From NCBI GenBank assembly GCA_036340075.1, contig JAYYZJ010000002.1, forward strand, positions 1 to 64,000: a stretch of DNA of 64,000 nucleotides, written 5' to 3'. Position 1 is the stretch's first letter. Each line of letters starts with the position of its first letter. Below, piece after piece: positions 54,201 through 57,200 of this stretch. A program made the position numbers. The DNA comes from Thermodesulfobacteriota bacterium. GTDB taxonomy: Bacteria; Desulfobacterota_D; UBA1144.

Positions 54201-57200
54201 AAAAGTAAAATATATAAATACAGAATCTATAGATAATTATGGAAATGCTGTTAGAACTGGAATAAAAAATTCAACAAAAGAATATGTTCTATTTATGGAT
54301 GCAGATGGTTCTCACAATCCTGAAATTATTTGCGAAATGATTCAAAAAATTGAAGATAGAAATATTTGTATTGCATCAAGATATTGTGATGGTGGTTCAA
54401 CTAGAGACAAAGTTACTTCAATCTTTTTATCTAAACTTTTAAATTTCGTCTATTCCTTTGTCTTAGGTGTTAAATGTTCTGATTGGTCTGGGAGTTTTAA
54501 ATTATATAAGGCGTGCTTCCTTAAAGAATTAACGCTGAATTCAAATAATTTTGATATAATTCCAGAAATTTTATTCAAAATATCTAGAATAGATCCTAAG
54601 AGAACAATTGATCAAGTTCCTTATACTTTCGATACTAGAATTCATGGTCAAACTAAAAGAAAGCTTAAAACATATATAGATTTCTTAACAACACTTTTTA
54701 AATTAAGAATAAGTTAATATATATTATATTAACGATTGTATTAATCTTATATTGAAATAATATAAATATTATGTTGAAAGGAGTTGTTTAATGGCAAAAG
54801 CATTAATTACTGGAATAACAGGACAAGATGGAGCTTATTTATCTAAACACTTATTAGATTTAGGGTATGAAGTTTATGGAGCAGCTAGAAGAAATTCAAA
54901 TTACAATACTGAAAGATTACAAATATTAGGAATTGAAAATGATATTAAGATAAAAGAATTTGAACTACTAGAAGAGTCAAACATAAGAAACGTTATAGAA
55001 GAAATACAACCTGATGAAATTTATAATCTTGGAGCTCAAAGTTTTGTAGGTGCTAGCTTTGTAACTCCAATGTATACAGCAGAAGTTACTGGTCTAGGAG
55101 TACTAAGAGTTTTAGATGCGATTAGAACAGTTTGTCCGAATTCTAAGTTCTATCAAGCATCATCTTCAGAAATGTTTGGGAAAGTATTAGAGACTCCGCA
55201 AAATGAGGAAACACCGTTTTATCCACGTTCTCCTTACGGAGTTGCTAAAGTTTATGCCCATTTTATAACGAAAAATTACAGAGAATCTTATAATATTTTT
55301 GGTTCCTGTGGAATCTTGTTTAATCATGAATCACCTTTAAGAGGTAATGAATTTGTTACAAAAAAAATAGTAAAAGCAGTAGCTAAAATAAAGAAAGGAG
55401 AACAAGATAAACTAATCCTTGGTAATCTCGACGCAAAAAGAGACTGGGGTTTTGCTGGAGATTATGTTGAAGCTATGCATTTAATGCTACAAGCAGAAAA
55501 ACCAGATGATTATGTCATATCAACGGGTGAAACTCATTCCGTAAGAGAATTTGTTGAACTTTCTCTTAATGCAGTAGGTATTGATTTTGAATGGAAAGGA
55601 GAAGGAGTAAAATCAGTTGCTATATCAAAAAAAGATGGAAAAGAAATTGTAGCTTGTAGCAAAGAATTTTATAGGCCCGCAGAAGTAGATTTATTACTAG
55701 GGGATTGCTCTAAAGCTCAGTCCGAACTCGGGTGGAAGCCTAAGACAACATTTAACTCACTTGTTGAATTAATGATTGATTATGAAATGAACAACGGTGG
55801 TTAAAAACCCCAAAGTCTATACATAACCACAAGCATAAATGAATACTGGTTAGGAGATCCTTGTTTCTCAACCAAAGGACTATCTGCAGATTCTCCAATC
55901 AAACGGTCATATTTCAAATTTAGCAACATAGATATTTTGTCAGTAACTGGTGATGTTACTGTATTTCCTATTCCCCATGCATAGAAACCTGCATCAGGCT
56001 TATACAAGGAATATTTTTGGTTGTTAGGTGTTCCAAACCATTCATCCATAAAATCTGAATTTCCATATCTATAACTTATGGATGTTTTATTAAGAAATAG
56101 CTGGTTTAGAGTAATCCAAATAGGTTTTGTATAATTGAGCGAAAAGTCGGAATCGATTTGATCGCCAAAGTCTTCAACTCCAGTCATCATTCCTATGCCT
56201 AATGAAAAGTTCATTGGTAATTTGTATTCAAACTCAAATCCTGTCTCAAAATGGGGATCGATTTCTTCTAACAAGGTCAATGAATTATCATCACCATTTT
56301 GCCTTCCAAAATTATAATTACCAAGTGCCCCTAGAGAGATATAATCGTTGTCTAGTAATGATAATTTAGCAAAGGGGCCTGTTATTTCAAAAGAATTTAA
56401 TATTGTTCTGGTTTTATCTTCATATCTAAATCCAGCGAAAGGTATCCACATAAATCTTCTGGAACTAGAACCTTTATATGTTGGATAGTTAATAAATCCG
56501 CCGCCTATATAAATATTAGAATTAGTTCTTGGTTTTTCTCCTTCTACTTCATATGCTATCGTTTCATGATAAGAGCTAAATGTAAAAAAAACTAAAGTAA
56601 ATAAAACTAATAAATTTCTCATATGCAATCTCCTACTATATCAATATATTACAAAATAAAATAATTTAAATAAAAAACCAATATTTACTTAAGTACTCCT
56701 TTATCAAAAATTTAGCAATTTGGCTTTATAAATTAGTTCTCCTTTTATTGAATATATATTATGACTATGATCCATCAACATCACAAAGACTTCATTTTTA
56801 CCTTTAGACAAGATATTTGCGTCAATTAAAAATTCATTTTTATCAACCATAAATTCTTTTCTGTTGATTTCTACAAGTAAGTGGCCACTGTTCTTCATTT
56901 TATTTGAATCCAGCTTCTCTCCATCTTCTAAGTTGATTGGCAATAACTTGAAATTCTTTAGTAAAAAAACTATTTTAACTTTATTTTCAGACAATTTATT
57001 GAACTCAAAATCAATTTCCGGATAAGGCTTACTTGCTTCTACTAAATCACCATGGTGTTGTTCATGAGAATTGATTTCTACGAAAGGGTATATAGTTAGA
57101 AAAAGGAATATCATTAAAAATGAAAAAACTTTGTTCATTTTATCTCCAAGAATTGTATATCATCCCAATAAAATATCTAAAGCCATCATAACAACAAGTC

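Follow-up and report, generated by a model that had tools for sequence, protein, structure and literature searches.

The window, the whole 64,000-nucleotide stretch of DNA that was analysed, belongs to the genome of a marine member of the Dadabacteria (G000; 963 kb, 92.9% complete, 0% contamination). It carries mipA, a gene for a MipA/OmpV-family outer-membrane protein, on the minus strand at 55801..56628. The open reading frame encodes 275 aa from a TTG start. The preliminary description placed the gene at 55801-56622, which corresponds to an ATG start two codons in (273 aa) that fits the 273-aa homologues, while the frame with TTG reaches 56628. The product matches Pfam PF06629 with 108.6 bits (E 6.9e-31, cut-off 24.2) over profile positions 1-220 of 221, and with 108.8 bits in the six-frame search; against the NCBIfam OmpV equivalog it scores 25.8 bits, with a cut-off of 400. 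Its N-terminus resembles a signal peptide and its C-terminal residue is Phe.

Three genes lie upstream of mipA on the same minus strand. The nearest (56704..57138) encodes a 144-aa secreted His-rich protein that is restricted to the genus, has no Pfam or NCBIfam match and finds homologues in only two clusters, at 98% and 66% identity. Its nearest named ESM Atlas cluster is 'YtkA-like' (0.91), which is a lead only. A ZIP-family metal permease (57160..57939; Pfam Zip PF02535, 73.1 bits) lies 21 bp further upstream, and the run begins with pgpA, phosphatidylglycerophosphatase A (57964..58413; Pfam PgpA PF04608, 136.1 bits).

The minus strand of the window also holds envelope genes. bamA (25279..27576), an Omp85 gene with five POTRA matches (Pfam Omp85 186.4, POTRA 154.7 bits), indicates that the machinery for assembling the outer membrane has been retained; BamA is found in 119/120 genomes of the phylum. 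The periplasmic chaperone gene skp/ompH (24735..25253; Pfam OmpH 77.8 bits) is present too. Upstream of bamA are a LolD-like ATPase (27573-28247; NCBIfam LolD 156.5 bits, cut-off 307.75) and a LolC/E-like permease (28228-29382; lolCE TIGR02212 130.7 bits, cut-off 362.45), matches that are the best in their class yet remain under the cut-offs. An M23 peptidase (43723..45090; Pfam Peptidase_M23 83.9 bits), anchored in the membrane by its N-terminus and without LysM, is one of the peptidoglycan enzymes that point to the presence of a wall.

The distribution of these genes was followed in 120 genomes of the phylum, G000 included. G000 and 18 others form f1, a family of streamlined marine Dadabacteria represented entirely by MAGs or SAGs. 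A second small-genome family, f6, contributes six genomes, three of them closed, and the other families 95. PF06629 is matched in 19/120 genomes: G000 and 17/18 others in f1, 1/6 in f6 and 0/95 elsewhere. MipA had been reported as nearly confined to the lineage at 14/18 and 15/119, and the larger tally bears this out; such confinement within the phylum fits a gain of the gene. The 18 homologues in the lineage share 44-99% identity, and their alignment has a mean column identity of 53%. Retained in 18/19 f1 genomes, MipA is under clear purifying selection and should matter to the cell. Related loci among genome contigs number 15, all from the same marine lineage. Near-identical contigs from four marine RNA libraries (three studies) contain only mipA within a 2.8-kb stretch; these are Logan contigs with shares of 0.05-0.07 of the sampled words, and the lack of cover over ZIP, the 144-aa gene and pgpA proves nothing. 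A MipA profile searched against 1.84 billion representatives gave 3174 matches at E <= 0.001. Scores within its own clade are 435, 384 and 290 bits, followed by a steep drop to 175 bits. No donor emerges from the next eight representatives, where the only taxon name is that of one Phenylobacterium MAG. The same profile gave a chance match only among PDB sequences (E 0.21).

The AF2 model of MipA is a 12-stranded beta-barrel (pLDDT 80.2, pTM 0.72). In the model the periplasmic turns are 3-5 residues long and a periplasmic domain is lacking; the N-terminal tail of about 12 residues is poorly conserved, with pLDDT below 50. The long conserved loops and the motifs would face the outer side, if the usual barrel rule for topology applies. 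The best fold matches, NalP (Z 14.8), KdgM (13.4), NanC (13.1) and Tsx (13.1), are channels and translocators of the generic 12-strand kind. The copper channel PcoB was rejected as a specific structural relative: it ranks second in Foldseek (E 7e-7, TM 0.58 on target), but re-alignment puts it at rank 37 (Z 10.5), after the generic 12-strand barrels.

One reading of the neighbourhood is that MipA and the ZIP permease work together in the uptake of a metal (zinc-type), with MipA as the port in the outer membrane. The gaps in the pgpA-ZIP-144aa-mipA run are only 21-75 bp, the same pgpA-ZIP-His-rich-mipA layout occurs in a second genome (G108), and two genomes of genus g6 also have ZIP beside mipA, a Fur-family regulator (31.1 bits) separating the two genes in one of them. 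In genus g2, mipA adjoins a His-rich barrel-like protein of 332-348 aa. The loops of the MipA barrel itself contain many conserved Asp, Glu and His residues. The initial PcoB match pointed the same way before re-alignment weakened it. The ZIP linkage, though, holds in only 4/12 loci examined and 2/6 genera, adjacency is weak evidence in genomes with such tight gene packing, and the His-rich neighbour is limited to the genus. A literature search returned no bacterial link between MipA and zinc in the titles or abstract beginnings of the matches listed. We consider this function unlikely, although it would be compatible with the explanation of the locus that we favour below.

The preliminary description offered MipA as a candidate substitute for the missing outer-membrane tethers. 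As such it would bind peptidoglycan directly or through a wall-bound partner at its periplasmic mouth. The appeal of the proposal lies in the distribution of MipA, which 18/19 f1 genomes but none of the 95 genomes of tether-bearing families encode, in its strong conservation and in the RNA contigs that cover mipA alone. MipA elsewhere also binds periplasmic partners, as the portions of PMC10936184 on E. coli and P. aeruginosa describe. The model speaks against it: a bare barrel with turns of 3-5 residues and a short, variable tail offers little to reach the wall, and the conserved motifs sit in loops on the inferred outer side.

A covalent link would in addition lack its enzyme. L,D-transpeptidases are required for covalent links of both the Lpp type and the beta-barrel type; in Alphaproteobacteria and Coxiella they join barrel N-termini to mDAP. 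G000 resembles these bacteria in that a barrel has been proposed as the wall link and its MurE is of the mDAP type, but YkuD (PF03734) is absent from G000, from all of f1 and from all of f6.

The known partners are missing as well. E. coli MipA binds MltA and PBP1B (Vollmer 1999, as cited in PMC10936184). The G000 protein is like it in PF06629 membership, similar length, signal peptide and C-terminal aromatic residue. It differs in that G000 encodes neither MltA nor the class A PBP1B: six-frame searches (E <= 1) gave 0 matches for MltA PF03562 and 0 for class A PBP Transgly PF00912, confirming the earlier remark that class A PBPs are absent and extending it to MltA. In P. aeruginosa, MipA and MipB form a polymyxin sensor in which MipB docks at the open periplasmic side of the barrel, according to PMC10936184. 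The models published there share this barrel; its channel is charged and the partner docks at the periplasmic mouth, and the predicted 12-stranded barrel superimposes on NanC and OmpG-type porins (PMC10936184). The G000 model likewise matches NanC (Z 13.1) and OmpG (Z 11.8). Unlike the MipA-MipB pair, mipA of G000 has no adjacent gene for a beta-lactamase-fold lipoprotein, its neighbours being ZIP and the His-rich protein, and G000 lacks LPS as a polymyxin target.

The second family is a further obstacle to the proposal: f6 is without the same tethers, yet 5/6 of its genomes lack MipA and the lone f6 MipA is 27% identical. A literature search found no paper, by title or abstract start, that proposes MipA as a tether. 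On these grounds we regard MipA as an improbable tether and do not uphold its suggested role as a substitute. The model makes it more likely that MipA is a small-solute channel or a docking barrel for a periplasmic partner than a wall link; a role in envelope cohesion through such a partner is possible.

The absence of the tethers themselves is well founded. With six-frame profile searches at E <= 1 as the criterion, G000 has 0 matches each for OmpA PF00691, TolB_N PF04052, LPP PF04728 and SLH PF00395, and control genomes were matched every time with these four profiles. All four systems named in the preliminary description (Tol-Pal, OmpA-like, Lpp and SLH/OmpM) are thus confirmed as absent from G000. 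This includes Lpp, which had been judged from a Pfam table alone; a lipobox pattern scan of G000, judged by eye, likewise revealed no Lpp-like small helical lipoprotein. The confirmed observation is wider than first stated, as L,D-transpeptidase YkuD, LysM and PG_binding_1 also give 0 matches by the same criterion, and SPOR gives one 12.6-bit match only, which we take as chance. LpxC has 0 matches in G000.

The OmpA domain occurs in 94/120 genomes and TolB_N in 92/120. Both are missing from f1 (0/19) and f6 (0/6) and present in 94/95 and 92/95 of the other genomes, respectively, in agreement with the earlier statement that other Dadabacteria retain TolB and OmpA-domain proteins; the SLH count covers G000. 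YkuD follows the same line (f1 0/19, f6 0/6, others 48/95). So does LolA PF03548, with 0 matches in G000, 1/18 in the rest of f1, 0/6 in f6 and 89/95 elsewhere; the sole f1 match is in a suspect MAG (G119; 78% complete, 3% contaminated). The placing of the loss in the small-genome marine lineage stands for f1, but it is not a matter of f1 alone, since f6 is equally empty in all six genomes, the three closed ones included. BamA, present in 6/6 f6 genomes, is 28-33% identical to that of G000 in f6 and 34-41% in other families, and RpoB is 59-63% identical for every family (61 genomes, completeness >= 95%). These identities do not resolve the relation between f1 and f6, and hence whether there was one loss or two.

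The lack of LPS has a different history. LpxC is found in 1/120 genomes, as a contig-end fragment in a MAG that is 78% complete and 3% contaminated. The previously noted lack of LPS therefore applies to G000 but is not specific to its lineage, and because LPS synthesis was lost phylum-wide, its loss is older than that of the tethers. A literature search on the outer membrane or lipopolysaccharide of Dadabacteria found nothing on tethers, judged by title. Graham and Tully (PMC8115339), who describe the marine pelagic Dadabacteria as cosmopolitan, use none of the terms LPS, lipopolysaccharide, membrane or Gram.

Gene order provides positive evidence of deletion. In relatives the order is hisD-hisC-lnt-lgt-198aa-tolB...rplU-rpmA...alaS, and in G000 the 198-aa gene and rplU are separated by 60 bp. 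The pal gene of relatives, encoding a lipoprotein with a C-terminal OmpA domain, lies immediately upstream of hemL-atp, where G000 has a 95-bp gap. Both the tolB and the pal slot are closed within conserved synteny.

These scars bear on the concern that the absences are artefacts of incomplete assemblies, or of homologues that have diverged past detection in a fast-evolving, AT-rich genome. G000 is incomplete and completeness in f1 ranges from 77 to 94%. Single-sequence searches can indeed fail here: tblastn with the Lgt of relatives missed the real Lgt gene, which a Pfam search then recovered, and for this reason tblastn negatives were excluded as evidence of absence. Incompleteness is an unlikely cause because 19 f1 genomes, each assembled independently, and the three closed ones of f6 agree in having neither OmpA domain nor TolB. 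Divergence is countered by the sensitivity of the profiles. Lgt and LspA were detected by six-frame Pfam searches in 19/19 f1 genomes, and Lgt, LspA and MipA profiles together with a BamA protein query find matches in nearly every f1 genome. We also built phylum-specific HMMs from six Dadabacteria Pal/OmpA-domain proteins and from four TolB proteins and ran them unfiltered on six-frame segments of at least 40 aa; on G000 they yield noise alone (best E 0.42 and 0.68). With the two slots shut and their flanking genes intact, an artefact is very improbable.

The rest of the envelope is retained. Profile searches confirm BamA, BamD, Skp, a single ExbB/ExbD pair, a TonB_C protein and one TonB-dependent receptor, as previously listed, and Pfam matches add a SurA-like protein, DegP, two TolC, two porins and MlaD. 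The LolD-like and LolC/E-like genes are kept although LolA was not found. Wall synthesis comprises MurB-G, MraY, RodA, PBP2, an FtsI-like PBP, MreBC and FtsZ/A, plus an FtsW frame. On its gene content, G000 is predicted to have a BAM-built outer membrane and a complete mDAP-type peptidoglycan pathway with SEDS and class B PBP pairs.

The absences are profile-based, and a tether without detectable homology would escape them. Such a tether could be hidden among the secreted or lipid-anchored proteins of the lineage itself. Of 165 heuristically flagged secreted ORFs in G000, 52 were checked against Pfam; about 16 secreted ORFs or lipoproteins have no Pfam family, and with about 6-7 credible ones among 20 lipobox pattern matches, very few lipoproteins are left, whose survival suggests that they are important. 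Three candidates were considered. The first is a 221-aa lipoprotein encoded beside the TonB/TolA-like gene, with a Trp/Arg-Pro motif right after the lipid-modified Cys in f1 only. It is full-length in 19/19 f1 genomes, and other families match only positions ~53-204, which implies that the N-terminal motif was added in f1. The second is a mini-lipoprotein of 43-50 aa bearing the same motif; this second short motif ORF is matched in 16/19 f1 genomes. The third, of 204 aa, is a small barrel-like protein whose N-terminal extension is rich in Lys, Ser and Glu.

The structure of the first candidate lends little to the idea, as its predicted fold is a common lipoprotein alpha/beta fold (YdcD double-wing Z 8.9, BamC 6.2, DcrB 5.5) of types not known as wall binders. 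Its core is ancestral and also occurs in Pal-bearing families, and the motif sits in a low-confidence segment of the model. With LolA missing, the candidate lipoproteins may moreover not reach the outer membrane. A new tether of this kind is in our view rather unlikely. As a replacement for Pal in particular the 221-aa lipoprotein was set aside, having no OmpA-like fold match and an ancestral core; it is a weak candidate only. Four secreted MORN-repeat paralogues in G000 were also rejected as a lineage-specific substitute, since they are missing from part of f1 and occur outside it. At E <= 1e-8 they are found in 9/120 genomes (f1 6/18, f2 2/15), and f2 has many more candidates below the threshold, a tally that is unreliable because the threshold is too strict for a 23-residue repeat.

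We conclude, with a probability of roughly 0.7, that f1 and f6 really lost the known toolkit linking outer membrane and peptidoglycan, and that the mipA barrel is most likely a channel or docking site and not a wall link. LPS synthesis (LpxC) would have been lost first, throughout the phylum. f1 and f6 would then have been left without Pal, TolB, other OmpA-like domains, L,D-transpeptidases and LolA, with Lpp and SLH/OmpM not found in G000 either. What they would have kept is a BAM-dependent outer membrane with porins, TolC and the TonB-dependent receptor, a complete peptidoglycan pathway, and one TolQ/TolR-like motor with a TonB/TolA-like protein. The outer membrane might be held by trans-envelope machines, such as TolC pumps, contacts between TonB/TolA and the receptor, and Mla, or alternatively by a factor without recognisable homology. 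Weak coupling may also be tolerable where the cell is very small. A more far-reaching proposition, which we advance tentatively, is that small-genome marine plankton bacteria with a true outer membrane and a normal mDAP-type wall live without any dedicated tether, LPS, LolA or Tol-Pal constriction, or else with a new tether that uses the f1 motif or MipA and a partner. If this is true, the lineage would define the minimal Gram-negative envelope and show that bacteria in nature can do without the Pal/Lol module, which counts as a hallmark of Gracilicutes.

Planctomycetes and Candidatus Dependentiae lack all four tether systems (Witwinowski et al., bioRxiv 10.1101/2021.05.31.446380, main text). 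G000, a Bam-bearing diderm without Pal, OmpA, Lpp and OmpM, appears to be a member of a new tether-less lineage of this kind. 'Dadabacteria' does not occur in the main text of that study (bioRxiv 10.1101/2021.05.31.446380), and its supplementary tables could list some. Unlike in those groups, the loss occurred inside a phylum whose other members keep Pal and TolB, which allows the event to be placed and its scars to be seen, and LolA and L,D-transpeptidases are gone from the same genomes. G000 also looks like small-genome marine plankton and not like an intracellular symbiont, on indirect grounds such as the near-identical mipA contigs from marine RNA libraries and the account of marine pelagic Dadabacteria by Graham and Tully. 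The same work on tethers regards tethering as needed for envelope stability and proposes that cells with two membranes came to have one through loss of the tether (Witwinowski et al., bioRxiv 10.1101/2021.05.31.446380). With close relatives that carry the full set, the contrast within the phylum and the scars amount to a natural experiment. It opens the questions of what a minimal Gram-negative envelope requires, how an outer membrane can be constricted at division when Tol-Pal is gone, and what route BamD-type lipoproteins take when there is no LolA; the tempting assignment of MipA as the tether is removed as unsupported.

Of the Tol-Pal system of Gracilicutes, TolB and Pal are deleted in G000. 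What may remain of it is a TolQ/TolR-like pair and a TonB_C protein, whose Tol-type scores all stay under the equivalog cut-offs. The first motor subunit scores higher as TolQ (74.2 bits, cut-off 221) than as ExbB (48.1), the second higher as TolR (63.4 bits, cut-off 127.3) than as ExbD (56.9), and the protein that combines a TM segment, a helical region and TonB_C is a weak TolA_full match (48.0 bits, cut-off 59.45). The suggestion that ExbBD/TonB doubles as TolQRA thus gains some support from these preferences and from the synteny of the pair with that of relatives, but all scores are below the cut-offs. With one TonB-dependent receptor in the genome, the motor may now serve TonB-type transport only.

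No known system that ties the outer membrane to peptidoglycan can be observed in the study genome (G000), a 12-contig assembly of 962,961 bp with 92.9% completeness and 0% contamination; the window covers positions 1-64000 of its contig C2. Six-frame profile searches at E ≤ 1, each of which matched in named control genomes, returned nothing in G000 for OmpA (PF00691), TolB_N, LPP or SLH, as the preliminary description had claimed. The profiles for YkuD L,D-transpeptidases, LpxC, MltA, LysM, PG_binding_1 and Transgly were likewise without a match, the last of these bearing out the reported lack of class A penicillin-binding proteins (PBPs), and the sole SPOR match is one of 12.6 bits (E 0.147) within a 717-aa frame. 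HMMs that we built from six Dadabacteria Pal/OmpA-domain proteins and from four TolB proteins, run unfiltered on all six-frame segments of at least 40 aa, reached best E-values of 0.42 and 0.68 in G000. The same kind of profile search detected Lgt and LspA in all 19 genomes of the family of G000, the streamlined marine Dadabacteria (f1), indicating that the method detects diverged proteins here. Since tblastn with the Lgt of relatives overlooked the real G000 gene, we did not lean on tblastn negatives. The absence of the known tethers is well supported.

Phyletic counts cover 120 genomes: G000, 18 other f1 genomes, six genomes of a second small-genome family (f6), three of which are closed as one contig each (1.2-1.5 Mb), and 95 from other families. 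The OmpA domain is found in 94 of the 120, all from the other families (94/95; f1 0/18, G000 0, f6 0/6). TolB_N follows the same pattern with 92 genomes (others 92/95, including 30/33 in f9; f1 0/18, G000 0, f6 0/6), as does YkuD with 48 (others 48/95, including 1/37 in f8; f1 0/18, G000 0, f6 0/6). LolA is present in 90 genomes (others 89/95, f1 1/18, G000 0, f6 0/6). LpxC, counted at E ≤ 1e-5, is matched in one genome of the 120 (f1 1/18; G000 0, f6 0/6, others 0/95), and BamA, searched with the G000 protein, in 119 (f1 17/18, G000 present, f6 6/6, others 95/95). The only f1 matches to LpxC and LolA both lie in G119 (C175:3-134 and C22:2172-2672), a metagenome-assembled genome of 78% completeness and 3% contamination. 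The LpxC match consists of a 53-aa frame located at the end of a contig, and G119 is also the sole genome without a BamA match; we suspect that both matches are contamination.

These counts show that the loss of LPS characterises the entire phylum, and that tether loss is younger and affects two small-genome families, f1 and f6. The missing LPS described earlier is therefore real in G000 but not specific to its lineage, LpxC being matched in 1/120 genomes phylum-wide. Placing the tether loss in the small-genome marine lineage likewise agrees with 0/19 f1 genomes for OmpA and TolB, but f1 is not alone, as f6 has 0/6 too. BamA and RpoB identities leave one and two losses in f1 and f6 undistinguished. 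Most other Dadabacteria encode an additional Omp85 protein of roughly 605-690 aa, whose size is TamA-like; G000 has BamA only.

The gaps left at the tolB and pal loci of G000 are positive evidence of deletion. In four relatives from three families (G019 and G020 of f4, G066 of f8, G090 of f9) the gene order is hisD-hisC-lnt-lgt, a conserved 198-aa gene and tolB, followed within the fetched stretch by rplU, rpmA and alaS in two of the four (G020 and G066). Contig C3 of G000 keeps the same genes, but the 198-aa gene (44868-44275) and rplU (44214-43909) are separated by 60 bp. Genomes of f4 and f8 encode a single OmpA-domain protein, a Pal-like lipoprotein in which the lipobox and a helical linker come before the OmpA domain at the C-terminus. 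Its gene immediately precedes hemL and the atp genes. In G000, a gap of 95 bp separates hemL (C12 110541-111839, minus strand) from the next gene, which is ispE-like and divergent. The original observation of missing tethers is thus confirmed and extended to f6, to YkuD and LolA, and to closed gaps at both sites.

The lineage is a further case of a known, rare category, diderms without any known tether. Witwinowski et al. (bioRxiv 10.1101/2021.05.31.446380) examined 1093 genomes for Pal, OmpA, Lpp and OmpM, described the co-distribution of Pal and Lol in Gracilicutes, and singled out Planctomycetes and 10/10 Dependentiae genomes as lacking all four tethers. Dadabacteria do not occur in its main text, and the Dadabacteria genomics paper of Graham and Tully (PMC8115339) has no occurrence of LPS, membranes or tethers; our literature search returned no paper about the envelope of Dadabacteria or about a tethering role of MipA. 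What appears to be new here is the contrast within one phylum, the tolB/pal deletion scars and the fact that LolA and L,D-transpeptidases are both missing from these genomes, as well as, judged indirectly, the planktonic, small-genome setting. We consider the case to be of moderate-to-high relevance to envelope biology.

A simple greedy script called 1007 ORFs in G000. In 165 of them a hydrophobicity heuristic recognised a signal-like N-terminus without additional membrane helices; a Pfam scan covered the 52 of these that looked convincing by eye, with 113 outside it. About 16 proteins of G000 that are secreted or lipid-anchored have no assigned family. Pfam identifies BamA, BamD (YfiO, 41 bits), Skp and a TonB-dependent receptor, all as previously reported, together with two SurA-like proteins, DegP, two TolC-type proteins, a BBP2 porin, a Porin_O_P-like protein, MlaD and a TonB_C protein. 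Among the enzymes that act on the wall are a glucosaminidase, an M23 peptidase, SLT, an S13 carboxypeptidase and an AmiA-like amidase. The pathway of wall synthesis is complete, with RodA, PBP2, MreB, MreC, FtsZ, FtsA, MurB, MurC, MurD, MurE (best-scoring models of the mDAP type), MurF, MraY, MurG, an FtsI-like class B PBP and an FtsW frame. The single motor pair scores higher against TolQ (74.2 bits) and TolR (63.4 bits) than against the ExbB/ExbD models, all below equivalog cut-offs, and the TonB_C protein reaches a sub-threshold 48 bits with TolA_full. Region C8 55059-57325 of G000 shares synteny with the G019 block lysA-ExbB/TolQ-ExbD/TolR. LolD-like and LolC/E-like genes (window 27573-29382, minus strand; NCBIfam scores below cut-offs) are kept directly upstream of bamA, while LolA (PF03548) was not found in G000, in 17 of the 18 other f1 genomes or in any of the six f6 genomes. 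A lipobox pattern scan of G000 gave 20 matches, about 6-7 of which we judged credible.

MipA had been put forward as a substitute tether. The gene (window 55801-56628, minus strand) encodes 275 aa from a TTG; the previously described 55801-56622 is the same ORF counted from an ATG two codons in, a start that agrees with 273-aa homologues. The protein matches PF06629 over profile positions 1-220 of 221 (E 6.9e-31, 108.6 bits, cut-off 24.2) and OmpV of NCBIfam weakly (25.8 bits against a cut-off of 400). MipA is almost confined to the lineage, as first noted: it occurs in 19 of the 120 genomes (f1 17/18 and G000, thus 18/19; f6 1/6; others 0/95). An alignment of 20 sequences, 19 from the marine lineage and the f6 protein at 27% identity, is strongly conserved, with a mean column identity of 53%. 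The AlphaFold2 model based on it (pLDDT 80.2, pTM 0.72; residues 17-32 below 50) has 12 strands, and its best fold matches are generic 12-strand barrels (NalP Z 14.8, EspP 13.7, KdgM 13.4, NanC 13.1, Tsx 13.1, OmpG 11.8 and PcoB 10.5).

By the established barrel rule, both termini would be periplasmic and the long loops would face outward. The periplasmic turns of the model are residues 71-75, 94-96, 138-140, 172-176 and 228-231, and the four most conserved motifs (about 50-58, 107-126, 190-201 and 247-253) fall in the outer-side loops of this topology. Only about 12 poorly conserved residues lie between the signal peptide and strand 1, and no part of the modelled protein could reach the wall. 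A covalent link is excluded because no L,D-transpeptidase was found in G000, f1 or f6. Published MipA models (PMC10936184) likewise depict this barrel, its channel charged and a lipoprotein partner docked at the periplasmic mouth; unlike in E. coli, the MipA partners MltA and class A PBP have no gene in G000. Furthermore, five of the six f6 genomes lack Pal, TolB and MipA alike, indicating that Dadabacteria can live without all three. Because of the bare barrel, the missing enzymes and partners and the f6 pattern, a tethering role for MipA, whether direct or through a partner, is unlikely, and the proposed substitution is not supported.

The gene context of mipA hints weakly at metals, as adjacency tells little in packed genomes. 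mipA closes a series of four genes on one strand, spaced 21-75 bp apart, and is preceded by pgpA (57964-58413), a ZIP permease (57160-57939) and a 144-aa His-rich secreted protein (56704-57138), all on the minus strand of the window. Of the 12 loci examined, 4 (in genera g1 and g6) have ZIP adjoining mipA, once with a Fur-family regulator in between, and G000 and G108 both have a His-rich secreted protein at the ZIP-mipA locus. The 144-aa protein is restricted to its genus and lies closest to a 'YtkA-like' cluster in the ESM Atlas (0.91, a lead only). In genus g2 (loci L009, L010, L013, L014 and L015) the neighbour of mipA encodes a secreted, His-rich protein (332-348 aa) with a C-terminal aromatic residue, a barrel-like look and no Pfam family; a selenium-binding-protein (SBP56) gene is also near mipA there.

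RNA-library contigs from four marine libraries of three studies are confined to mipA (55893-56575), four at 99% identity or more, one at 95-99% and one at 90-95%; they are compatible with an abundantly transcribed barrel gene but do not prove it, as they are contigs and DNA carry-over is possible. On the plus strand (window 53274-55804 and 58550-61142), mipA is flanked by genes for sugar-nucleotide metabolism, namely a cytidylyltransferase/mannose-6-P-isomerase-C fusion, a GT2 glycosyltransferase and a GDP-mannose 4,6-dehydratase (54791-55804) convergent with mipA; genes for two polytopic membrane proteins (415 and 425 aa, without a Pfam family) lie farther along. The region may represent a cluster for surface glycans, in an organism that lacks LPS.

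The only sizeable lipoprotein without an assigned family in G000 is a 221-aa protein (C8 37971-38636) whose gene diverges from the TonB/TolA-like one. All 19 f1 genomes (19/19) carry it at full length, and its core (about 53-204) is also found in f2 (10/15), f3 (2/2), f4 (3/5), f9 (17/33), f6 (1/6) and f8 (1/37). Its model (pLDDT 78.5) resembles common lipoprotein folds: the YdcD double-wing (Z 8.9, rmsd 3.4, 116 residues aligned), BamC (Z 6.2) and DcrB (Z 5.5). The N-terminal Trp/Arg-Pro motif right after the lipidated Cys has matches in f1 only. The same post-Cys motif also occurs in a mini-lipoprotein encoded elsewhere than in the window (C12 61446-61631; 43-61 aa), the ORF of which was matched in 16/19 f1 genomes; the motif is the sole lineage-specific envelope feature found besides MipA.

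Four secreted MORN-repeat paralogues of 197-242 aa with near-identical signal peptides (C4 70267-72467, C5 94723-96155) were rejected as a lineage substitute, as a phylum search, at too strict a threshold, found them patchy in f1 and also in f2. A 462-aa secreted protein without a Pfam family (C5 81334-82722, minus strand) contains repeated aromatic Trp-Pro-hydrophobic motifs and may be a large barrel or an outer-membrane repeat protein. Contig C11 (6870-19716) carries a 3173-aa ORF, the N-terminus of which resembles by eye a phage tape-measure protein, followed by a 1094-aa ORF, and may be phage-derived.
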